Below, in pieces: positions 29,191 to 46,747 of a DNA stretch of 64,000 nt. The DNA lies in assembly GCF_044324785.1 (NCBI RefSeq), contig NZ_CP172127.1. One strand, 5' to 3'. Made by a program: the position numbers and the translations under genes. The notes beneath the pieces are model-generated. The model saw only the letters and a list, made by a program, of their open reading frames with translations. It ran no database searches and had not been told where the DNA came from. The DNA comes from Escherichia coli (GTDB taxonomy: Bacteria; Pseudomonadota; Gammaproteobacteria; Enterobacterales; Enterobacteriaceae). Position 1 is the first letter of the stretch. Each line of letters starts with the position of its first letter.

Positions 29191-29433
29191 GATGTAATCC
29201 TTGTGCAGACAAATTTCTTGTTACCTAAACGTAACAATACCATGACATTTTACCGTTGTCTGCTCTGAAAACCTTACCTCTTAGCTGGATTTACAATCAA
29301 CGCATTGATTAGTTAGCTAATGTTGCTACTTCCTTCCCTGACTATTGATGATCTGAATGAATTGTCGCGGTAAAATAGCCCCGCCAGGGGTTTCCGGCAT
29401 GACGACAATTATCTGGAGGAGCCTGATAAAACA

Positions 29434-30691: not shown

Positions 30692-30746
30692 GGTGATGCT
30701 GCCAACTTACTGATTTAGTGTATGATGGTGTTTTTGAGGTGCTCCA

Positions 30747-31022
30747 GTGGCTTCTGTTTCTATCAGCTGTCCCTCCTGTTCAGCTACTGACGGGGTGGTG
30801 CGTAACGGCAAAAGCACCGCCGGACATCAGCGCTATCTCTGCTCTCACTGCCGTAAAACATGGCAACTGCAGTTCACTTACACCGCTTCTCAACCCGGTA
30901 CGCACCAGAAAATCATTGATATGGCCATGAATGGCGTTGGATGCCGGGCAACTGCCCGCATTATGGGCGTTGGCCTCAACACGATTTTACGTCACTTAAA
31001 AAACTCAGGCCGCAGTCGGTAA
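30747..31022 (+). CDS. insA: IS1 InsA (91 aa)
   Basis: [43 protein letters not shown]... zinc-finger/HTH InsA. Confidence 0.95.
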
Positions 31023-31444
31023 CCTCGCGCATACAGCCGGGCAGTGACGTCATCGTCTGCGCGGAAATGGACGAACAGTGGGGCTATGTCGGGGCTAAAT
31101 CGCGCCAGCGCTGGCTGTTTTACGCGTATGACAGTCTCCGGAAGACGGTTGTTGCGCACGTATTCGGTGAACGCACTATGGCGACGCTGGGGCGTCTTAT
31201 GAGCCTGCTGTCACCCTTTGACGTGGTGATATGGATGACGGATGGCTGGCCGCTGTATGAATCCCGCCTGAAGGGAAAGCTGCACGTAATCAGCAAGCGA
31301 TATACGCAGCGAATTGAGCGGCATAACCTGAATCTGAGGCAGCACCTGGCACGGCTGGGACGGAAGTCGCTGTCGTTTTCAAAATCGGTGGAGCTGCATG
31401 ACAAAGTCATCGGGCATTATCTGAACATAAAACACTATCAATAA
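30941..31444 (+). CDS. insB: IS1 InsB reading frame (expressed as InsAB' by -1 frameshift)
   Basis: 167-aa ORF in the -1 frame overlapping the insA 3' end. Confidence 0.9.
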
Positions 31445-31459
31445 GTTGGAGTCATTACC

Positions 31460-31468
31460 TACGCGCTT
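31460..31468. repeat. IS1 target-site duplication, right copy (TACGCGCTT)
   Basis: identical to 30683-30691. Confidence 0.9.
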
Positions 31469-32963
31469 TAACGGTATTTTCCGTTGATGCCTGGGCCAGT
31501 ACTTTGTCGTATGCCGGATTGTTAAAGCGTGAAATATTCCCTGAATGCGTTGACGTTAACAACGTAAGGAAAGTGGAGGGTTCATTATAATCCCCTACCC
31601 ATGAGGCGCGGATAACATCAAAATTGCCGGTGTTACGGCTATCGATATAGGTTTTCCATTCCTGATTCTGCAATTTAACATCTACGCCAAGGTTCTTTTT
31701 CCACATCGATGCTACAGCAATCGCAATTTTTTGATGGTTTTCTGAAGTGTTATACAAAAGCGTCAGCTTCAGCGGTTTTTGCGGACCATAACCAGCTGCG
31801 CTCAACAAAGTTTTTGCCTGCGCATTCAGTTCTTCCTGACTCATTTGTTCAAACGGCGAAGGCTCCGGCGTAAAACCGGCAGTAACATCTGGTGTAAAAT
31901 GCCACGCTGGCTTTTCCCCCGTCCCCAACACTTTTTCGGTCATCAGGCGGCGATCTATCGTCATACTTAATGCCAGGCGAACACGCTGATCGGCCGTCGG
32001 CCCTTTTTGCGTGTTAAACGCATAATAATAGGTCCCGAGCTGCGGCGGCGTATAAACCTGCCCCGGAATATCCTTCAACAGCTTCTGATACATATTTTTC
32101 GGGAAGGATTCGGTGATATCAATATCCCCCGCGAGGTAACGCTTAGTGGCTGCGGATTCCTGATTAATTGGCAAGAAGGTCACTTTTTGCAGTACCGTTT
32201 TGGCGTTATCCCAATAATGGGTATTCGGTACCACGACCAGTTTTTCATTGACTACGCGCTCTTCAAGAACATAAGCGCCATTACCGATCAGTTTTCCGGG
32301 TTTCGTCCACTCTTTAATGCTTTCTACGTTGGCTTTTTGCACCGGGAAGAAGGCAAAGTTAGCGGTTAAATTCACAAACCACGGCAACGGTTTATCAAGC
32401 TGGATTTTCAAAGTATGGGCATCAACTGCGGTGACGCCAAGCTGGTCAGGCGTGGCTTTACCATCAATAATCGCCTGTGCGTTGTTGATTCCCGCCAGCG
32501 CGGCAAACCATGCAAATGGCGACAATGTTTTTGGGTCCACCAGACGTTGCCAGCTGTAGACAAAATCTTGCGCCGTTACCGGTGTGCCATCCGCCCATTT
32601 TGCGTTATCGCGCAAGGTAAATGTCCAGATACGGTTGTCATTACTTTTCCACTGAGTCGCAACGCCGGGGACAATCTCCCCTTTCTCGTTCTGATTCACC
32701 AGTCCTTCAAACAGATCGCGAATGACCTGAATCTCTGGCAGGCCCACGGCTTTAGCGGGATCCAGCGACGCAGGTTCATCTTTAATGTGGCGCACCAACT
32801 CCTGCTTCTCTGCCAGTACTGTGCCGCTCGGAACTTCTGCAGCATACGAAAGAGAAATGCTGCTGACCAACAGCGCACAACACGTGACTGAAACAGAGTG
32901 CTTCATAAGTTTCCCTCTAACCGACATTAAAATTGATGCGTAATTATTTGTTTCGCCTTAAAG

Positions 32964-32998
32964 AAATGCAAACAACTTCCATCAAAAAAGTGACAAAG
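32964..32998. promoter_or_regulatory. conserved motif upstream of mppA (copy A); candidate operator/promoter element, possibly for PgrR(YcjZ)
   Basis: AAATGCAAACAACTTCcatCAAAAAAGTGA matches 28 of 32 positions with a copy upstream of mpaA (36954-36988). Confidence 0.45.
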
Positions 32999-33242
32999 GA
33001 AGCATCAAATGTTTTAAGTATCAATATATCAAATCAGATTTAGCGTAAATAATAGTCTCCAAAATGCGGTAAAGCACATAGAACTCCGAACACTACGTTC
33101 GGGCTTCGCACGTTCAAACCCGTTTTCGGTATCATAATCAGCATCTGTCGCCATTGTGCGAAGAATAAAAAATGACCAAAACGTTGAAAGGAACTGAGAA
33201 TACGTTAAGAGAAGAATTAAATTAATGTATCAGCAAGTAGTG

Positions 33243-34142
33243 CTAAACAGCACCTTTATACTTCAGCCTATCTATAAATAATGAGAATGCCGAGCCAGCA
33301 TGTCGACGGTGTGGATAGTACAGGTGATAACCGGGTAAATCTGGTGTGAATTTATCCAAAACACGTATCAGTTTTTTTTCTTTAATAGCCCGCTCAACCT
33401 GATCATAAGGTAGATACGCCAACCCATGCCCATCAATTGCAGCATCAATGATCAGGTCTATCGTATTCAGTAAAAGCTGACCTTCCATGCGAACACGAAC
33501 TTCACGTCCACCGCGTATTAATCTCCAGCGATTTGCTGTACCCGATGTGGGAAGATACAAATTAATTGCCTGATGATCTATTAATTGTGACACTGACGTT
33601 GGAGCACTTCGACGAGAAAAATAATCCGGTGAGCCAACAATAGCCATTGGTATATCTGGCCCGATTCGAATGGCGATCATATCTTTATCCATCTCCCCAC
33701 CCAGACGGACGCCTGCATCAAAACGTTCAGAAACGACATCGGTCAAACCATAATCAATGGTAAGCTGGATATCAATTTCAGGATGCGATTTCAGGAATGT
33801 GCGCATAGCTGGTAACAATATCGTTTTTGCTGCATGTTCTACAGTAGTAATACGTATTGTCCCGGATGGGCGGTTCTGCAGATCGCTCAGGGATGTCAGG
33901 GCAGAATCTATGTCATGCAACATAGGGCCAAGAACAGACAAAAGATGCTCGCCCGCTTCAGTGGGTACAACGCTGCGCGTGGTTCGCGTCAGAAGCCGCA
34001 ATCCTAATCGTTCTTCTATACGGCGCACTATCTGGCTTAAAGCTGACTGCGCCATGCTCAGGCGGGCTGCTGCGCGAGTGAAGCTACGCTCCTCTGCAAC
34101 GACGACAAACGCCATCAGATCAGCGATTTCTTCACGCTTCAT
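33243..34142 (-). CDS. ycjZ: LysR-family regulator YcjZ (I believe renamed PgrR, peptidoglycan-recycling regulator) (299 aa)
   Basis: 299 aa; N-terminal LysR HTH (AARLSMAQSALSQIVRRIEERLG); divergent from ycjY. Confidence 0.85.
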   Translation of the reverse strand: MKREEIADLMAFVVVAEERSFTRAAARLSMAQSALSQIVRRIEERLGLRLLTRTTRSVVPTEAGEHLLSVLGPMLHDIDSALTSLSDLQNRPSGTIRITTVEHAAKTILLPAMRTFLKSHPEIDIQLTIDYGLTDVVSERFDAGVRLGGEMDKDMIAIRIGPDIPMAIVGSPDYFSRRSAPTSVSQLIDHQAINLYLPTSGTANRWRLIRGGREVRVRMEGQLLLNTIDLIIDAAIDGHGLAYLPYDQVERAIKEKKLIRVLDKFTPDLPGYHLYYPHRRHAGSAFSLFIDRLKYKGAV

Positions 34143-34166
34143 TCAGTATCTCCATACAATCTATTA

Positions 34167-34180
34167 ATCATTTAAATGAT
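34167..34180. promoter_or_regulatory. perfect 14-bp palindrome in the ycjZ/ycjY divergent region (candidate LysR-type operator)
   Basis: ATCATTTAAATGAT, followed by direct repeat GGTCTAATCA at 34182-34191 and 34200-34209. Confidence 0.4.
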
Positions 34181-34267
34181 AGGTCTAATCATGATTTTGG
34201 GTCTAATCAACTTAATGATCAATATCTATAGTGATATCACCAACCGTCAAAACGAACCGACAACTCC

Positions 34268-35200
34268 ATGAGGAACGGAATGATGAATAATAAAGTCAGC
34301 TTCACTAACAGCAATAATCCAACCATCTCTTTGTCTGCAGTGATCTATTTCCCTCCAAAATTTGATGAAACCCGTCAGTATCCGGCAATTGTGGTATCTC
34401 ACCCAGGTGGGGGCGTTAAAGAGCAAACGGCCGGAACCTATGCCGAAAAACTGGCGGAAAAGGGATTTGTCACTATTGCTTATGACGCATCTTATCAAGG
34501 TGAAAGCGGCGGCGAGCCGCGTCAGTTAGAAAACCCATACATTCGTACTGAAGACGTCAGTGCCGTGATTGATTACCTGACAACGCTTTCTTATGTCGAC
34601 AATACCCGAATTGGTGCGATGGGAATTTGTGCCGGTGCAGGATATACAGCCAATGCTGCAATTCAGGATCGCCGCATCAAGGCCATCGGTACTGTTAGTG
34701 CGGTCAATATTGGTTCGATGTTCCGTAATGGTTGGGAAAACAATGTGAAATCTATTGATGCCCTACCATACGTTGACGCGGGTTCAAACGCCCGAACCAG
34801 CGATATTAGCAGCGGAGAATACGCCACTATGCCACTGGCACCAATGAAGGAGTCCGATGCGCCGAACGAAGAACTGCGTCAGGCCTGGGAGTATTACCAC
34901 ACCCCTCGCGCGCAGTATCCAACAGCACCGGGTTACGCTACTTTGCGCAGCCTTAACCAGATTATTACCTATGATGCTTACCATATGGCGGAAGTGTACC
35001 TGACTCAGCCGATACAGATTGTGGCGGGCAGCCAGGCAGGGAGCAAATGGATGAGTGACGACCTGTACGATCGAGCATCAAGCCAGGATAAACGCTATCA
35101 CATTGTTGAAGGCGCAAACCATATGGATCTTTATGACGGCAAAGCCTATGTGGCTGAAGCAATTTCAGTATTAGCTCCGTTCTTTGAGGAAACTCTGTAA
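34268..35200 (+). CDS. ycjY: alpha/beta hydrolase, dienelactone-hydrolase-like with Cys nucleophile, YcjY (310 aa)
   Basis: GxCxG nucleophile elbow (MGICAGAG) in an alpha/beta-hydrolase-like sequence; start may be a few codons downstream. Confidence 0.8.
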   Translation: MRNGMMNNKVSFTNSNNPTISLSAVIYFPPKFDETRQYPAIVVSHPGGGVKEQTAGTYAEKLAEKGFVTIAYDASYQGESGGEPRQLENPYIRTEDVSAVIDYLTTLSYVDNTRIGAMGICAGAGYTANAAIQDRRIKAIGTVSAVNIGSMFRNGWENNVKSIDALPYVDAGSNARTSDISSGEYATMPLAPMKESDAPNEELRQAWEYYHTPRAQYPTAPGYATLRSLNQIITYDAYHMAEVYLTQPIQIVAGSQAGSKWMSDDLYDRASSQDKRYHIVEGANHMDLYDGKAYVAEAISVLAPFFEETL

Positions 35201-36132
35201 TGAAACATATTCAAATCCGCAATAGTGATATGGCCTGGCATATTGCTGCCAATATTCAGTTTCCACCAAATTTTGATGAGTCAAAACAGTATCCGGCGAT
35301 TATCAGCGTCCATCCTTTTGGCAGTTGTAAGGAGCAGACGTCTGGCAATATCTATGGCAAGGCATTGGCTGAAAAAGGCTATGTCGTTCTCGCTTATGAC
35401 GCCAGTTTCCAGGGAGAATCTGGTGGGGAGCCTCGTTGGATAGAAGATCCGACACAGCGCGTTGAGGATATTAGCCGTGTTATCGATTATGCAGTAACTC
35501 TGCCATATGTTGATGCTGAACGCATTGGCGTGCTGGGTGTGTGTGGGGGGGGTGGCTATGCCATTAATGCCGCGCTGACAGAAAAACGAATTAAAGCTGT
35601 AGTGAGTATTACGGGTGTTAATATCGGGCGTCTTTTTCGAGAAGGTTTCAGCAATTACGATCCGATTGGCGCATTGAATGCAATGGCGTCGCAACGAACC
35701 AAAGAGGCTCGTGGTGGAGAATTACAGATCAACGAATTACTTCCCGCCAGCCTGGATGCAGCAAAAGCCCATGGACTGACCGAACGCGATGTTTATGAAG
35801 CAACTGACTACTATAAAACACCACGCGGGCAACAACCGGGAGGTGCGACAAAAATGTTGTTCTCACATGCACAGAAAACGCTGGCCTGGGATGCCTTCGC
35901 ATTTACTGAAGTGTTACTGACTCAGCCGGTGATGGTAGTAGTTGGTGAAAAAGTCGGTGCCTTCGGTGCTTATCGTGATGGACTGGAAGTCTATGGCCGG
36001 GCGATGGTTTCGCAGGATCGTCAGTTAGTTTCGTTACCCGATTTCTCACATTATGAACTGTATGACAAACCGGAAGCAGTTCAGGAGGCGCTGGAAAAAG
36101 TTATTCCTTTTTTCAACACCCATCTGGGATAA
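35200..36132 (+). CDS. paralogous alpha/beta hydrolase with Cys nucleophile (310 aa); corresponds in position to a region I recall as the K-12 ymjD remnant
   Basis: Clear paralog of the upstream gene (shared blocks AYDASFQGESGGEPR, LGVCGGGG); start overlaps ycjY stop. Confidence 0.75.
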   Translation: MKHIQIRNSDMAWHIAANIQFPPNFDESKQYPAIISVHPFGSCKEQTSGNIYGKALAEKGYVVLAYDASFQGESGGEPRWIEDPTQRVEDISRVIDYAVTLPYVDAERIGVLGVCGGGGYAINAALTEKRIKAVVSITGVNIGRLFREGFSNYDPIGALNAMASQRTKEARGGELQINELLPASLDAAKAHGLTERDVYEATDYYKTPRGQQPGGATKMLFSHAQKTLAWDAFAFTEVLLTQPVMVVVGEKVGAFGAYRDGLEVYGRAMVSQDRQLVSLPDFSHYELYDKPEAVQEALEKVIPFFNTHLG

Positions 36133-36137
36133 GTTTC

Positions 36138-36788
36138 ATGAGAAATATTATGAAAAAAGTACTCATTCTTGGTGCTGGCGGTCAGATAGCCCGCCATGTG
36201 ATTAATCAACTGGCAGATAAACAAACCATTAAACAAACTTTATTTGCTCGTCAGCCAGCAAAAATACACAAACCCTATCCAACTAATAGCCAGATTATTA
36301 TGGGGGATGTACTGAATCATGCAGCACTGAAGCAGGCCATGCAGGGACAGGATGTTGTGTATGCCAACCTTACGGGGGAAGATTTAGATATTCAGGCAAA
36401 TTCAGTGATCGCTGCGATGAAAGCCTGTGATGTTAAACGTCTGATCTTTGTTCTTTCCCTCGGTATTTATGATGAAGTTCCAGGAAAATTTGGCGAATGG
36501 AATAATGCAGTTATTGGTGAACCCCTAAAACCATTCCGCAGGGCTGCGGATGCAATTGAGGCTTCTGGACTGGAATATACAATTCTTCGCCCTGCCTGGC
36601 TGACTGATGAAGATATTATTGATTATGAGCTTACCTCACGCAATGAACCATTCAAAGGTACGATCGTATCACGTAAGAGTGTCGCCGCATTAATTACAGA
36701 TATCATCGATAAACCTGAGAAACACATTGGTGAGAATATAGGCATCAATCAACCCGGGACTGATGGCGATAAACCCTTCTTCATGTAA
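36138..36788 (+). CDS. NAD(P)H-binding NmrA/SDR-like protein (216 aa); corresponds in position to a region I recall as the K-12 ymjC remnant
   Basis: Rossmann motif VLILGAGGQIARH near the N-terminus; true start may be MKKVLILG at 36150. Confidence 0.7.
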   Translation: MRNIMKKVLILGAGGQIARHVINQLADKQTIKQTLFARQPAKIHKPYPTNSQIIMGDVLNHAALKQAMQGQDVVYANLTGEDLDIQANSVIAAMKACDVKRLIFVLSLGIYDEVPGKFGEWNNAVIGEPLKPFRRAADAIEASGLEYTILRPAWLTDEDIIDYELTSRNEPFKGTIVSRKSVAALITDIIDKPEKHIGENIGINQPGTDGDKPFFM

Positions 36789-36953
36789 ATCAATTATATA
36801 GCTACCATCGTACTGTACTATGTGCAGTACGATTTATTAAACTTATTAAGGTGAACTGATCAATCAGATGCGATTAACATGTGTAGAACCAGTAAGAATA
36901 AAATACGCCATGTATATAACATTACGACAATTCTAATATCTGCACATCAATGA

Positions 36954-36988
36954 AAATGCAAACAACTTCTGGCAAAAAAGTGATACAA
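36954..36988. promoter_or_regulatory. conserved motif upstream of mpaA (copy B)
   Basis: AAATGCAAACAACTTCtggCAAAAAAGTGA; matches copy A at 28 of 32 positions. Confidence 0.45.
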
Positions 36989-37078
36989 GATCGATGACAT
37001 AGCGTTGAAGAAAAGGATTTGATAATCCGCAAAATTTGCACAACACTGCCTGTAATACTTCCTGAACCAGAGACGATC

Positions 37079-41104: not shown

Positions 41105-42166
41105 TTATTTTTCGCTGGGCGTTTTGCCTTTTTGCAGCGTTTCTTTCACCTGACCGATAAGCTGACGACGGAAATCCCCAAGGCGAGGTTTGTCATCGTC
41201 AATCCACGGCAGAGGGCGGCAAAGCTCCATAGCTTTAATCCCCAGTCGTGCCGTCAGAAGTCCAGCACCAATCCCCTGAGCTGCCCGGGTAGACAAACGC
41301 GCAGCGAGATCTTGCGACATCCAGTCCATCCCCACTTCGCGCACCAGTTCGCTGGCCCCGGCGAAAGCGATATTCAGCAATACCAGCTTAAACAGGCGCA
41401 AACGGCTGTAATATCCCAGTTCAATGCCATACAGCGTGGCGATGCGATTGATCAAACGCAGATTGCGCCAGGCGATAAATGCCATATCCACCAGCGCCAG
41501 CGGGCTAACGGCGATCATCAACGTTGATTCCGCTGCCGAACGGCTGATTTCGCGCCGCGCCTGGGCATCTAAAACTGGCTGGACCAGATGAGCATACAGG
41601 CTGACCACTTCACGATCGTTCTGCGTTTCATGGATTGAGGCATACCAGCGTTGCAGTGCCGGATGCGACTGGTCGATGCCCGCCTGCTGCGCCAGTTTTT
41701 CGCAAAATGCGCGGCCTTTACCCGTGCCGTGACTGTGCAACAAATCGCGCGCTTCGTCGCGTTCATGGGCGCGCTGTCGCAAGCGCCATAAGCGCCGCCA
41801 CTCTGTTACCACAGAACCTACGCCAGCGCCGATAATCAATGCCCCAGCGGCACATCCACCCAGCGCTACCCAATCCTGAGTTTGCCAGGCGTTCATTGTC
41901 CACTGTACGCCCTGCCCGACAACGCTTGCGCCAAACAGAGCCAGCCCGCCCATCACCATTTTGCGCCACAGGCTGCGTTTCGGACGTAACGCTGCGTCCA
42001 TCACCGCTTCAACTTGCCCTTCTTCTTCCGGTGCTTCGTCGAGCGTGGCCGGAGCAAAATTTTGCGCCTGATTTTCGTCAAAGGTCTGCTGCGCCCTGAA
42101 TTTTGGATTCTGATCGACCTCCAGTGGACCGTCGAAATCAATACGTGGTTTTAACGGTTCGGTCAT
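41105..42166 (-). CDS. ycjF: UPF0283 inner-membrane protein YcjF (353 aa)
   Basis: 353 aa; start overlaps ycjX stop (4 nt). Confidence 0.85.
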
Positions 42167-43560
42167 CGCAATTTATCTCCTATTAAAAATTCCAGCGCAG
42201 CATCAAGACGAATATGCGGCAGCGGTTTGTCGACATCCATCACCTGCGGACGAAACGCCTCAAACTGGAAGCCTTGCTTATCCCAGAACGCCTGACCAGG
42301 TAAACGTGCGGGAACTTCGCCAGGATAAACAGTGAGCGGTGCGCCATCGCTGAGTCGATTACCGCGCAGCGCCGGGATTTTCTCACCGTTAACATCAATA
42401 ATGCCGCTGGTGGTCGCCTGAACTGACGCCAGCCCCAGGCAGTCCATGCTGATCCCTTCGAAAGCCGCATTTTGCCAGGCATCCTGAATTAGTTGTTGCA
42501 GTAATGAAACCATATTGGCGTGCTGATCGATGGTCACATGGTCTGCTTTAGTGGCAGCAAACAATAGCTTATCGATAACCGGCGAAAACAAACGCCGGAA
42601 CAGGGTTCGCTGCCCGTAGTGGAAACTTTGCATCAGCTGCGTCAGCGCCAGACGCATATCATTAAATGCCTGTGGCCCACTGTTGAGAGGCTGCAGGCAA
42701 TCCACCAGCACAATCTGGCGGTCAAAGCGCAGAAAATGATTCTTATAGAATCCCTTCACCACTTTCTCGCAGTAATAATTAAACCGCTCGCGCAGCATTC
42801 CGGCATTGGTATGCTTATCGGCCTGCGCCAGTTTGGACTCGCCCCAGGCATCGACATCCGGCCACGGGAAGAATTGCAGCGCGGGCGCACCTGCCATATC
42901 TCCCGGCAAGACAAAGCGCCCAGGCTGAATAAAGTGCAACCCCTGCTGTTTGCAGTGGTGGAGATACTCGGTCCAGGCGGCGGCAATGTCTGCCAGCCGG
43001 TTTTCGTCGGCAGGCGCTAGCGGATCCAGCCCTTCGCACATCATTCGCCATTTCGCCGACCATTCGCCGCGCTGACCATTAAGTAAGCCCGTCATCTGGC
43101 GCGACCAGCTTAAATAGTCCTGCGCCAACATCGGCAGATCGAGCAGCCATTCGCCGGGATAATCCACAATCTCCAGATACAGCGTGGAGGTGTCCTTGAA
43201 GTGGCGTAGCAGCGAATCGTTCGATTTAAAACGTAACGCCAGGCGAATTTCACTGACGCCGCGCGTAGGCGTCGGCCAGGCGGGAGGATCGCCATATAAC
43301 TGCGCCAACCCTTCATCATAGGTGAAGCGCGGAATGCCAAAGTCACGCTGGGGAATGCGTTTTACGCCCAGCAGGCGCTCTTCACGCACCGCACTTAAAA
43401 GCGGCAAACGTGCTCCGGCATGAATATTGAGCAACTGATTAACCATCGCGGTGATAAACGCTGTTTTGCCGCTGCGGCTAAGTCCGGTTACAGCGAGGCG
43501 CAGATGTCTGTCGACACCCCGATTCACCAGCGCATTAAGTTCATTTTTAAGTCGCTTCAT
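42163..43560 (-). CDS. ycjX: P-loop NTPase YcjX (DUF463) (465 aa)
   Basis: 465 aa; Walker A GLSRSGKT. Confidence 0.85.
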
Positions 43561-43678
43561 TGCTGTCCTGTGCCAGAAAGCTGTAGAAAGGATTAGATAC
43601 TGGAGATAATAATGTGGGTTAATTTTGATTTATCAAATGAATAAGCGGCGTTGTTTACACCGCTCAATAAGTAATTTG

Positions 43679-43993
43679 TTAACCTTTGACCTTCGGCATT
43701 GCGATGTCTTTCAGGCCACCGGCGTTCTCAACGTGGGTATATCCCATCTCGCTAAGGATCTCTTTTGCCTGCCCTGACTGGCGTCCGGCATTGCAATACA
43801 CTTTCACGGTGTCGTTTTTATCCGGAACGGCGGTGGCAATGCGCTCTTTTACTTCCTTCAGGGGAATATTGATGGCCCCCTGAACGTGCTCTTGCTGATA
43901 CTGCTCTGGAACACGAACATCGATCCAGTGTTCAGCGGCGAAAACGGGCAGTGAAAACACCAGTGTCAGAGCAAGTAAGCCTTTTTTAAACAT
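43679..43993 (-). CDS. pspE: periplasmic rhodanese (thiosulfate sulfurtransferase) PspE (104 aa)
   Basis: signal peptide; rhodanese active-site Cys in YCNAGRQS. Confidence 0.9.
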   Translation of the reverse strand: MFKKGLLALTLVFSLPVFAAEHWIDVRVPEQYQQEHVQGAINIPLKEVKERIATAVPDKNDTVKVYCNAGRQSGQAKEILSEMGYTHVENAGGLKDIAMPKVKG

Positions 43994-44067
43994 GTAAGCG
44001 TCCTTCTATGGATGAAAATTGCCATCCATAATATGCCTTAGCTTTAACAATTTTTGCGAAACTCCCC

Positions 44068-44289
44068 TCACCTTTTATAACGCTGCGCCAGTTTATTGGC
44101 AGCCCGACTTAACAGCGGTTCCAGCGCCACGGCCAGCAACATTTTCAGTGGTCGGCGAGCAACTGATTTTATCGCCCAGCCAGCTACACCCGCCGGGCCA
44201 TAGCGCAGTGCGGTAAGAAGTACCAGCTTGCCTGCTAATTTGAAACCAGGCTTCACCTTTTGCCCGGCCTGTTGCCAGCGAGTATTCAT
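44068..44289 (-). CDS. pspD: phage-shock protein D (73 aa)
   Basis: ORF track 44068..44301 trimmed to [10 protein letters not shown]. Confidence 0.85.
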
Positions 44290-44297
44290 AACTTTCC

Positions 44298-44657
44298 TCA
44301 CAGTTGACGGAAACGGCTACGTAACGTGAAAGTATCGGAAGTGACATAACGTTCCATCTCGCGTAAACGCGTTTCACTTGCCGCCAGTTCACGGTCGACT
44401 TCATCCAACAATTCGCTGCTGGAAGGTAGCTGCTCACCAAAGGCCATGTTGTCCGGCATTGGATCAAGCGCAAATGACAAAATGATGTAAGCAACCAGGG
44501 TAAACAGCGCCAGACCGAAGAAAATCGACAGCACCACCAGGATACGCACCAGTTTTACCGGTACATCAAAATAGTTGGCAATCCCGGCGCAAACGCCGCG
44601 TACCATGCCCTGCTGCGGAATACGCCATAATTTTTTATTGAGATTAATGCCCGCCAT
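44298..44657 (-). CDS. pspC: phage-shock protein C (119 aa)
   Basis: 119 aa with single TM; overlaps pspB stop. Confidence 0.9.
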
Positions 44658-44881
44658 TAGCGATCCCTCCAGTTCGGATGTTCTGCATCAAGAATAGATT
44701 CCAGCGCCTGAGTACGTTCGCGCATCCGTTTTGCTTCATCAGCCAGTTGCGCTAATCGCTGCTGCTCACTTTGCGACAATTCACTGCGACCAGAACGATT
44801 GCTGTAATGCAGCCATAACCAGATCGGTAAAACAAACAGCACAAAAATGGTTAACGGAATAGCCAGAAATAGCGCGCTCAT
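44657..44881 (-). CDS. pspB: phage-shock protein B (74 aa)
   Basis: 74 aa with N-terminal TM helix. Confidence 0.9.
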   Translation of the reverse strand: MSALFLAIPLTIFVLFVLPIWLWLHYSNRSGRSELSQSEQQRLAQLADEAKRMRERTQALESILDAEHPNWRDR

Positions 44882-44934
44882 AAGGACTCCTTAGACGATG
44901 AGCGGCGGCGCGTTCGGACGCCGCCTGGATGTTA

Positions 44935-45675
<741 letters not shown>

Positions 45676-45769
45676 TTATCTTTTTGATTTATAAAGATCT
45701 GATTGAAGAATCAACAGCAGCATGCCAGGATAAGTTAGCGAATTACACTAACAAGTGGCGAATTTCATC

Positions 45770-46747
45770 ATGGCAGAATACAAAGATAATTTACTCGGCG
45801 AGGCGAACAGCTTTCTCGAAGTGCTGGAACAGGTTTCGCATCTCGCACCGCTGGACAAACCGGTGCTCATCATCGGCGAGCGCGGCACAGGTAAAGAGCT
45901 GATTGCCAGCCGTCTGCATTATCTCTCCTCCCGTTGGCAGGGGCCGTTTATTTCCCTTAACTGCGCGGCGTTAAATGAAAATCTGCTGGATTCCGAACTG
46001 TTTGGTCACGAAGCGGGCGCGTTTACCGGTGCGCAAAAACGTCATCCAGGGAGATTTGAACGTGCCGACGGCGGTACGCTATTTCTTGATGAACTCGCTA
46101 CGGCACCGATGATGGTACAGGAGAAATTATTGCGCGTGATTGAGTACGGTGAACTGGAGCGCGTTGGCGGCAGCCAGCCATTGCAGGTGAATGTGCGGTT
46201 GGTATGCGCGACGAATGCCGATCTCCCGGCGATGGTCAATGAAGGTACTTTTCGCGCTGACCTGCTCGACCGGCTGGCTTTCGATGTAGTGCAACTGCCG
46301 CCCCTGCGCGAGCGCGAAAGCGACATTATGCTGATGGCAGAACACTTTGCCATTCAGATGTGTCGGGAAATCAAGCTGCCTCTGTTCCCGGGGTTTACGG
46401 AGCGCGCCAGAGAAACATTGCTGAATTATCGCTGGCCGGGAAATATTCGTGAATTGAAAAACGTGGTGGAACGTTCAGTGTATCGCCACGGCACCAGCGA
46501 TTATCCGCTTGATGACATCATTATTGATCCCTTTAAACGGCGTCCGCCTGAAGACGCTATCGCCGTTTCAGAAACCATCTCGCTTCCAACACTGCCGCTG
46601 GATTTACGTGAGTTTCAGATGCAGCAGGAAAAAGAGTTGCTGCAACTCAGTTTGCAACAAGGGAAATATAACCAGAAGCGCGCGGCTGAATTACTGGGGT
46701 TAACCTATCATCAGTTCCGCGCGTTGTTGAAAAAGCACCAGATTTAG
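45770..46747 (+). CDS. pspF: sigma-54-dependent activator PspF (325 aa)
   Basis: ORF track 45755..46747 trimmed to MAEYKDNLL; AAA+ Walker A GERGTGKE and GAFTGA sigma-54 contact motif. Confidence 0.95.
   Translation: MAEYKDNLLGEANSFLEVLEQVSHLAPLDKPVLIIGERGTGKELIASRLHYLSSRWQGPFISLNCAALNENLLDSELFGHEAGAFTGAQKRHPGRFERADGGTLFLDELATAPMMVQEKLLRVIEYGELERVGGSQPLQVNVRLVCATNADLPAMVNEGTFRADLLDRLAFDVVQLPPLRERESDIMLMAEHFAIQMCREIKLPLFPGFTERARETLLNYRWPGNIRELKNVVERSVYRHGTSDYPLDDIIIDPFKRRPPEDAIAVSETISLPTLPLDLREFQMQQEKELLQLSLQQGKYNQKRAAELLGLTYHQFRALLKKHQI

Follow-up and report, generated by a model that had tools for sequence, protein, structure and literature searches.

What does the short spacer between pgrR, the gene of a LysR-type regulator, and the divergent hydrolase operon beginning with ycjY encode, and is it read by the neighbouring regulator itself? 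We addressed this question in a 64-kb stretch of an Escherichia coli chromosome (the window), in which positions 33243-36800 match strain N3 at 99.7% identity. The genes and the translation signal that frame the spacer are the following; YcjZ has been renamed PgrR (PMC4797297).

33243-34142, minus strand: pgrR (ycjZ), LysR-type transcription factor of 299 aa (ORF and RefSeq annotation of N3 and K-12)
34270-34275, plus strand: Shine-Dalgarno sequence GAGGAA of ycjY, upstream of the conserved ATGATG
34280-35200, plus strand: ycjY, first gene of the regulated operon (ORF and RefSeq annotation)
35200-36132, plus strand: second alpha/beta hydrolase, ymjD-type, intact (ORF and RefSeq annotation)
36138-36788, plus strand: SDR, ymjC-type, intact, end of the operon (ORF and RefSeq annotation)

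The LysR-family gene is adjacent to the operon and divergent from it, with pgrR on the minus strand and ycjY on the plus strand. The best NCBIfam similarities of PgrR were to YafC, GcvA and AaeR, all of them far under the cut-offs. In K-12, ymjD and ymjC are present as remnants only. The first-pass annotation of this DNA had ended the spacer at 34267, just before an ATG at 34268; we rejected this ATG as the ycjY start because it fails to be conserved (Serratia proteamaculans has ATA there) and RefSeq starts the gene at 34280, which moves the real end of the spacer to 34279. Of the Shine-Dalgarno sequence, AGGAA is invariant, and the full GAGGAA is found in 10 of the 11 aligned sequences, S. 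proteamaculans having AAGGAA.

The same annotation had pointed to a palindrome and two direct repeats in this spacer. The palindrome ATCATTTAAATGAT at 34167-34180 is indeed perfect over 14 bp and occurs once in the 64-kb window, and the two copies of GGTCTAATCA, at 34182-34191 and 34200-34209 with starts 18 bp apart, are the only ones in the 64 kb; an independent repeat finder reproduced the palindrome and the repeats. The symmetric pairs within ATCATTTAAATGAT are A-N12-T, T-N10-A and C-N8-G. Two symmetric elements had been overlooked: one is TAATCAACTTAATGAT (34204-34219), a related dyad 39 bp downstream that shares 81% identity with TAATCATTTAAATGAT, and the other is the 10-bp palindrome AATCATGATT (34187-34196). 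The elements considered in this work are listed below.

34163-34232, unstranded: conserved core of the divergent promoter/operator region, 70 bp, enterobacterial identity 81-96%
34167-34180, unstranded: dyad D1, ATCATTTAAATGAT, proposed PgrR recognition binding site (RBS); perfect palindrome with conserved arms
34176-34181, minus strand: predicted pgrR -10, TATCAT, over the D1 right arm (consensus scan; same hexamers in PMC3946193)
34182-34191, plus strand: GGTCTAATCA copy 1, with AATCA as D2 left arm (repeat search); poorly conserved
34187-34196, unstranded: dyad D2, AATCATGATT, 10-bp palindrome, candidate promoter-distal activation subsite (ABS')
34200-34209, plus strand: GGTCTAATCA copy 2, holding the conserved GTCTAATC; nearly invariant in Enterobacterales
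34204-34219, unstranded: dyad D3, TAATCAACTTAATGAT (ATCA-N6-TGAT), candidate promoter-proximal activation subsite (ABS''), proposed from its likeness to the D1 16-mer
34227-34232, plus strand: predicted ycjY -10, TATAGT, with a predicted start near 34239; CTATAGT invariant in 11 enterobacterial sequences

When 34143-34267 was shuffled 5000 times with dinucleotides preserved, a palindrome of at least 14 bp arose with P = 0.012 and a direct repeat of at least 10 bp with P = 0.016, and the two occurred jointly in 0 of 5000. ATCA/TGAT tetramers numbered 9 vs 3.6 ± 1.5 expected from shuffles, a 2.5-fold enrichment (P = 0.0016). The entire window holds three perfect 14-bp palindromes and three matches to ATCA-N6-TGAT, including TAATCAACTTAATGAT. 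A further candidate, ATCAACGCATTGAT in the ynaJ-ynaI spacer (29296), was attributed to chance, spacings N0-N8 each giving one to three matches in the window.

With 14 perfectly self-complementary nucleotides, the palindrome might also be read as an RNA hairpin or a cruciform in a 5' leader, such as an attenuator, an sRNA or a terminator. It is, however, loop-free and nearly all A-T, and folding of 34143-34279 on both strands gave z values of only -0.65 and -0.23 relative to shuffles; a search of Rfam gave nothing at E ≤ 1. Since it is flanked by the two predicted transcription starts, the conserved block is for the most part probably untranscribed, and the centre of the dyad varies without compensating changes. 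We give this explanation almost no credence.

The conservation of the spacer was then compared among enterobacteria. Among the representative genomes scanned, the pgrR-ycjY pair turned up in Citrobacter, Kluyvera, Pseudocitrobacter, Shimwellia and Serratia, where the PgrR proteins are 85-88% identical. Phylogenetic footprinting, which had been suggested as a check on the elements, was positive: the aligned spacers show a sharply bounded core at 34163-34232. Between E. coli and each other genus, this core is 81-93% identical, vs 31-45% (saturated) for the four-fold degenerate sites of pgrR and ycjY, 5-55% for the pgrR leader (34143-34162) and 49-66% for the distal part (34233-34267). At least five lineages compared mutually showed a four-fold identity of 30-43% and a core identity of 81-96%, so that the conservation of the core does not depend on one comparison. 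The K-12 spacer differs from that of the window at two positions (34156 and 34248), both beyond the conserved block, and its core is identical. Among the sampled E. coli genomes the sole SNP in the core is 34198 T>A, in an O157:H7 strain, located in the linker between the repeat copies, and none falls within the named elements. The elements are thus under strong purifying selection.

The elements are not equally conserved. At D1 the conserved pattern is ATCA-N6-TGAT and then A(A/G)G. For the direct repeats, the first-pass annotation was right that both copies are real, but their 10/10 identity is specific to Escherichia and only copy 2 is widely conserved, copy 1 being replaced by AGTCCAATCA in other Enterobacterales and by GGCCTAATAA, GGCCAAGCGT or GGCCATGACG in alphaproteobacterial plasmids. 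The D2 position reads AATCATTATT in most other genera and is palindromic only in E. coli and one metagenome-assembled genome (MAG). The right arm of D3 is weakly conserved, with TAAT in some Enterobacterales and N4-CAAT in alphaproteobacteria.

More distant homologues were retrieved by tblastn against plasmids, which yielded the divergent module of a LysR gene and two hydrolase genes from four plasmid loci. The PgrR homologues are 74% identical in Rhizobium tropici pRtrCIAT899a, 72% in Agrobacterium fabrum pAt12D13a 69% in Kozakia baliensis and 61% in Agrobacterium pusense. The scan of representative genomes added a gammaproteobacterial MAG with a 58% homologue. Altogether, the divergent pgrR/ycjY-type layout was found in 10 enterobacterial loci, 4 plasmid loci and 1 MAG locus. 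The Rahnella ycjY homologue has a co-directional, not divergent, LysR gene, and the Pseudoalteromonas and Burkholderia homologues have no PgrR-like gene in the flank examined; these were excluded from the comparison.

In the distant loci the spacer is otherwise diverged and three elements persist at fixed spacing. In the Rhizobium, A. fabrum and Kozakia cassettes (PgrR 69-74%), the D1 arms and the A after them match E. coli at 100%, vs 33-67% for the 6-bp centre of the dyad, which reads TTTAAA, TCTCAA, CCTCAG or CTCCAG across loci. The GTCTAATC block is 88-100% identical in the same cassettes and the remaining blocks 25-62%. In the three alphaproteobacterial plasmids, GTCTAATC or CTCTAATC lies exactly 35 bp from the D1 start and is followed by N4-YAAT. 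All distant cassettes have a -10-like hexamer (TAGATT, TACCAT or TATATT; TATAGT in E. coli) 59-60 bp from the start of the dyad. With the 61% homologue, ATCACCTCAGTGATAGG is kept and GTCTAATC is replaced by a second dyad, ATCATGGAATGAT (ATCA-N5-TGAT), 32 bp on. The MAG locus (58%) has ATCA-N6-TAAT at the place of D1 and a different perfect 14-bp palindrome, TTGTTAATTAACAA, at the second position. In the predicted DNA-reading helix, E. coli PgrR and the 72% homologue share the residues MAQSALSQIVRR; those of the 58% homologue are different. Kept arms around a free centre are characteristic of recognition by a protein dimer. Given the variation in the central 6 bp, we take the recognition unit to be ATCA-N6-TGATA and not the full palindrome.

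That dimer might be another regulator, the AT-rich dyads being sites of H-NS, Fur, ArcA, IHF, FNR, CRP or NagC instead of PgrR. The region has a G+C content of 33% and abounds in AATCA/TGATT, loosely recalling Fur-box hexamers; moreover, knock-down of hns raises the ycjY promoter (log2 0.88) and ChIP-exo evidence is listed (PMC10505187). Nevertheless, the best consensus matches for Fur, ArcA, CRP, FNR, IHF, LexA and NagC were within the range of shuffles (P = 0.08-0.86), and the elements travel with pgrR into alphaproteobacterial plasmids, where most of the listed regulators have no direct counterpart. A different cognate regulator is therefore quite improbable, and PgrR is the candidate that we retain.

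The primary paper for PgrR binding at the ycjY/pgrR spacer is reportedly that of Shimada, Yamazaki and Ishihama (2013, Genes Cells 18:123); the reviews citing it give no sequence of the PgrR site. By genomic SELEX, the ycjY/ycjZ spacer is a PgrR target, and the PgrR regulon comprises ycjY-ymjDC-mpaA (repressed), ycjG and ycjXF-tyrR (PMC5934670). In DAP-seq, PgrR gave a 5632-fold signal at the pgrR promoter, vs 4413-fold for LacI on lacZYA (PMC10505187, Suppl. Data 6), and 16-fold at its other listed target, sfmCD (PMC10505187). Upon pgrR knock-down, the activity of the pgrR promoter measured by PPTP-seq increased (log2 0.97), a result borne out in a strain with titratable PgrR, and the ycjY promoter changed by log2 0.28-0.60, not called significant (PMC10505187), so that the control of ycjY under laboratory conditions is weak and of uncertain direction. 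The K-12 site belongs to the same locus and its core is identical to that of the window; the published K-12 data on PgrR therefore apply here. Binding of PgrR to the spacer in vitro and repression of its own promoter in vivo have thus been shown in the literature. Together with the positive footprinting, the SELEX and DAP-seq data and the measured negative autoregulation support the LysR-type recognition/activation layout with autoregulation that the first-pass annotation had proposed. At other reported PgrR regulon promoters in the window, no match to ATCA-N6-TGATA within one mismatch was found at the ycjG-tpx spacer, upstream of ycjX or upstream of mpaA, which counts against the operator reading.

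The promoters were assigned by a consensus scan, which on the minus strand predicted TAGACC-18-TATCAT as -35/-10 of pgrR, TAGACC being the reverse complement of a stretch within repeat copy 2; PMC3946193 gives these two hexamers for pgrR as well. On the plus strand, TAATCA in copy 2 occupies the -35 position of ycjY and is weak, with 3/6 consensus matches. Taking TATAGT as the ycjY -10, the dyad centres fall at about -65.5 (D1), -47.5 (D2) and -26.5 (D3) relative to the predicted start. Another ycjY promoter, ATGATA-19-TCTAAT, has been proposed (PMC3946193) and, if right, would alter the -65/-35 geometry. The Cappable-seq supplements, searched in both K-12 coordinate systems, have no entry near the predicted pgrR or ycjY starts.

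These assignments raise the question of whether the conserved elements are mainly RNA polymerase elements of overlapping back-to-back sigma-70 promoters, with the symmetry as a by-product. The spacer is bound by the RpoD holoenzyme alone (PMC3946193); TAGACC-18-TATCAT comes from both the scan and that study, and either TCTAAT or TATAGT could serve as the ycjY -10. TGATA and GTCTA, both conserved, fall on these hexamers, and CTATAGT shows no variation. Since promoter elements overlap the proposed protein sites, the conservation of TGATA and GTCTA could stem partly from RNA polymerase contacts. However, the left arm of D1, ATCA, has no promoter role and yet is invariant across cassettes with 58-100% PgrR identity, the conservation is of the dyad type with arms kept and centre free, and hexamers with 3-5/6 matches are seldom invariant across phyla. 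According to the literature, PgrR moreover binds the spacer extremely strongly in vitro without polymerase. As a full account of the conserved elements, promoters alone seem unlikely to us, although the sigma-70 promoter reading and the PgrR operator reading overlap and are not mutually exclusive.

A second sigma factor deserves consideration, TCTAA/TCTGA resembling the sigma-E -10 motif. GTCTAA in the repeats would then be a sigma-E (RpoE) -10, and ycjY and pgrR would be tied to envelope stress. A high SELEX peak of the RpoE holoenzyme (17.2) was reported on the ycjY/ycjZ spacer, and pgrR and ycjY have been called known RpoE-dependent promoters (PMC5493296). Against this, neither GTCTAA copy is preceded, at 15-17 bp, by a GGAACTT-like -35, the best combined match in 34100-34330 is 8/12, under the shuffle mean of 8.9, and repeat copy 1 is not conserved. 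We regard a sigma-E origin of the repeats as very improbable.

We consider it likely that 34163-34232 comprises compact back-to-back promoters of pgrR and of the ycjY operon together with the operator of PgrR, the regulator encoded next door; the bases contacted by PgrR, both transcription starts and a ligand-driven switch are inferred.

In the classical divergent operators of the LysR family (BenM/CatM at benA, CbnR, AtzR, OxyR), a recognition site lies near -65 and activation subsites near -35. The PgrR locus resembles them in its divergent regulator gene, in a strong dyad predicted to lie near -65 and to overlap the regulator's own promoter, in a weaker related dyad that covers a poor -35 at a distance of 2-4 helical turns downstream, and in the repression by PgrR of its own gene. 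The candidate for the weaker second site (ABS) over the target -35 region is D3, with GTCTAATC at the fixed 35-bp offset, and the region 34163-34221 has, at about 55-60 bp, the size of a tetramer footprint. Unlike the classical operators, the PgrR dyad is even-numbered, ATC-N8-GAT (T-N10-A), one base under the textbook T-N11-A. This mismatch lowers the fit to the textbook motif and not the functional reading, because the definition of the box is loose in the LysR family. The literature also differs in describing PgrR as a repressor of its target operon, and the subsite switch remains putative. LysR boxes include the NodD-type ATC-N9-GAT and the NahR-type TTCA-N6-TGAT. The PgrR dyad shares with them the ATC/GAT or TCA/TGAT letters of the half-sites and an AT-rich variable centre, its spacing being one base shorter than in the NodD box, and PgrR is not an orthologue of NodD or NahR.

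According to the proposed operator model, one pair of PgrR DNA-binding domains would bind with high affinity at D1 (ATCA-N6-TGATA). This dyad would lie some 65 bp upstream of the start predicted for ycjY and cover the predicted pgrR -10/+1, so that PgrR bound there would block its own promoter, which would explain the measured negative autoregulation. The second pair of DNA-binding domains of the tetramer may touch weaker downstream sites, D2 and D3 being alternative subsites whose left arms (AATCA) come from the two GGTCTAATCA copies. D3 sits between the weak ycjY -35 (TAATCA) and the predicted -10 (TATAGT), and PgrR occupying it would hold ycjY silent. Other LysR regulators suggest, by analogy, that a ligand would move PgrR from D3 to D2 and thereby free or activate the ycjY promoter.

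The binding of PgrR at the spacer and its autoregulation were already known, and the architecture is that of a standard LysR system. New, as far as we checked, are the resolution of the putative sites into ATCA-N6-TGATA and GTCTAATC, their conservation in alphaproteobacterial plasmids, and the predicted -65/-47/-26 geometry. The understanding of LysR-type regulators is unchanged by the operator model; what it offers is a testable description at the level of single bases for a regulator so far characterised by genome-wide binding assays only. In the form of ATCA-N6-TGATA, GTCTAATC at +35 bp and a -10 at +60 bp, it aids annotation and the design of reporters.

The comparison of loci bears also on how the operon came to its present place. 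The gene order ycjY-ymjD-ymjC beside a PgrR homologue recurs in other genera and on plasmids, and IS or integrase genes often adjoin the plasmid modules. Outside Escherichia, in the loci examined, the pgrR-ycjY(-ymjD-ymjC) module is never beside mppA, mpaA or ycjG. In a Citrobacter with no pgrR at that locus, 184 nt separate the divergent genes mppA and mpaA, and AAATGCAATTAACTTCCGACAAGAAAGTGATA is present once. E. coli has two copies of the AAATGCAATTAACTTCCGACAAGAAAGTGATA segment, 32963-33003 and 36951-36992, one on either side of a cassette of about 4 kb. The single segment in Citrobacter and the flanking pair in E. coli indicate that the cassette was inserted into an ancestral mppA-mpaA spacer with duplication. 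The motif shared by mppA and mpaA, from which the first-pass annotation had distinguished the palindrome and repeats, is accordingly a duplicated piece of the ancestral spacer, present in the Citrobacter that lacks pgrR at that locus; that distinction holds, and the shared motif, having arisen by duplication when the cassette inserted, has nothing to do with the PgrR operator. The sequence ATCAAAAAAGTGACA in the mppA-side repeat was rejected as a PgrR site, one-mismatch matches arising about every 2 kb and the motif (left arm GACA) being present in Citrobacter without pgrR at that locus.

It is possible, and we propose it tentatively, that PgrR is the dedicated ligand-responsive regulator of a horizontally mobile ycjY-ymjD-ymjC cassette and perhaps not primarily a regulator of peptidoglycan recycling. 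On this mobile-cassette reading, the cassette would be exchanged between alpha- and gamma-proteobacteria, in many cases carried by plasmids and near IS elements or integrase genes, and its insertion in the Escherichia lineage would have duplicated about 45 bp of the mppA-mpaA spacer. The link of PgrR to mpaA would then be positional, by read-through or neighbourhood, and the conserved operator geometry, with its dyad near -65 and the second site over a poor -35, would predict activation of the hydrolase operon by a small molecule, possibly an ester or a lactone. The joint travel of regulator, operator and hydrolase genes suggests that the assignment of PgrR to peptidoglycan recycling merits re-examination, as this assignment may reflect the landing site of the cassette rather than what PgrR senses.

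The motif shared by mppA and mpaA, GAAATGCAAACAACTTC..CAAAAAAGTGA, proved to be a direct duplication, with copies at 32963-33003 and 36951-36992 of the window that flank the approximately 4-kb pgrR-ycjY-ymjD-ymjC cassette. At the mppA-mpaA locus of a Citrobacter that lacks the cassette there (L023, 3817-4000), the gap between the two genes is 184 nt and holds one copy of the motif. Two copies around the cassette and a single copy in its absence place the insertion site of the cassette in the ancestral divergent mppA-mpaA spacer.

In the window, the ymjD-type second hydrolase and the ymjC-type SDR are both intact (35200-36788). At least 80% of 33243-36800 was covered in 1281 of the 5242 complete E. 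coli genomes having a match; the others, K-12 and BL21 among them, carry deletions leaving ymjD/ymjC remnants. Directly 3' of the SDR stop codon lies a hairpin, ATCGTACTGTAC...GCAGTACGAT, followed by TTTATT (36806-36836), where ycjY-operon transcripts could stop ahead of mpaA; the terminator scan called no terminator at this hairpin.

Among the E. coli genomes sampled, the only SNP within the conserved core of the pgrR/ycjY spacer was a T>A at window position 34198 in the O157:H7 strain E32511 (L025), in the linker separating the two GGTCTAATCA copies. A near-palindrome, CAATCAACGCATTGATTA (AATCAA-N4-TTGATT), is present in the ynaJ-ynaI divergent spacer (29294-29311); it fits ATCA-N6-TGAT, the form of the proposed PgrR recognition dyad, and was judged compatible with chance.

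Two further observations concern the following genes:

31293-32906, minus strand, mppA, murein tripeptide binding protein gene
42163-43560, ycjX
43679-43993, pspE

The mppA gene is broken near codon 482 by an IS1 copy (30692-31459), with a terminal inverted repeat, GGTGATGCTGCCAACTTACTGAT, at 30692 and the other matching end at about 31459; compared with strain N3, the extra DNA amounts to 777 nt. The murein tripeptide binding protein is thus truncated in the window's strain. This strain also lacks the ycjMNOPQRSTUV-ompG-ycjW block, located between pspE and ycjX on the K-12 map, and pspE, pspC, pspA and pspF (43561-46747) directly adjoin ycjX.

The LysR-plus-two-hydrolase module, compared across genomic loci L002-L013, is also carried by Klebsiella, Agrobacterium, Rhizobium and Kozakia plasmids (L016, L019, L020, L021), and IS or integrase genes often adjoin it. 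Each of the two hydrolases gave a partial match, below threshold, to the UilS family of acyl-homoserine lactonases. The YcjY identity of 80-93% across classes points to horizontal spread of the module.
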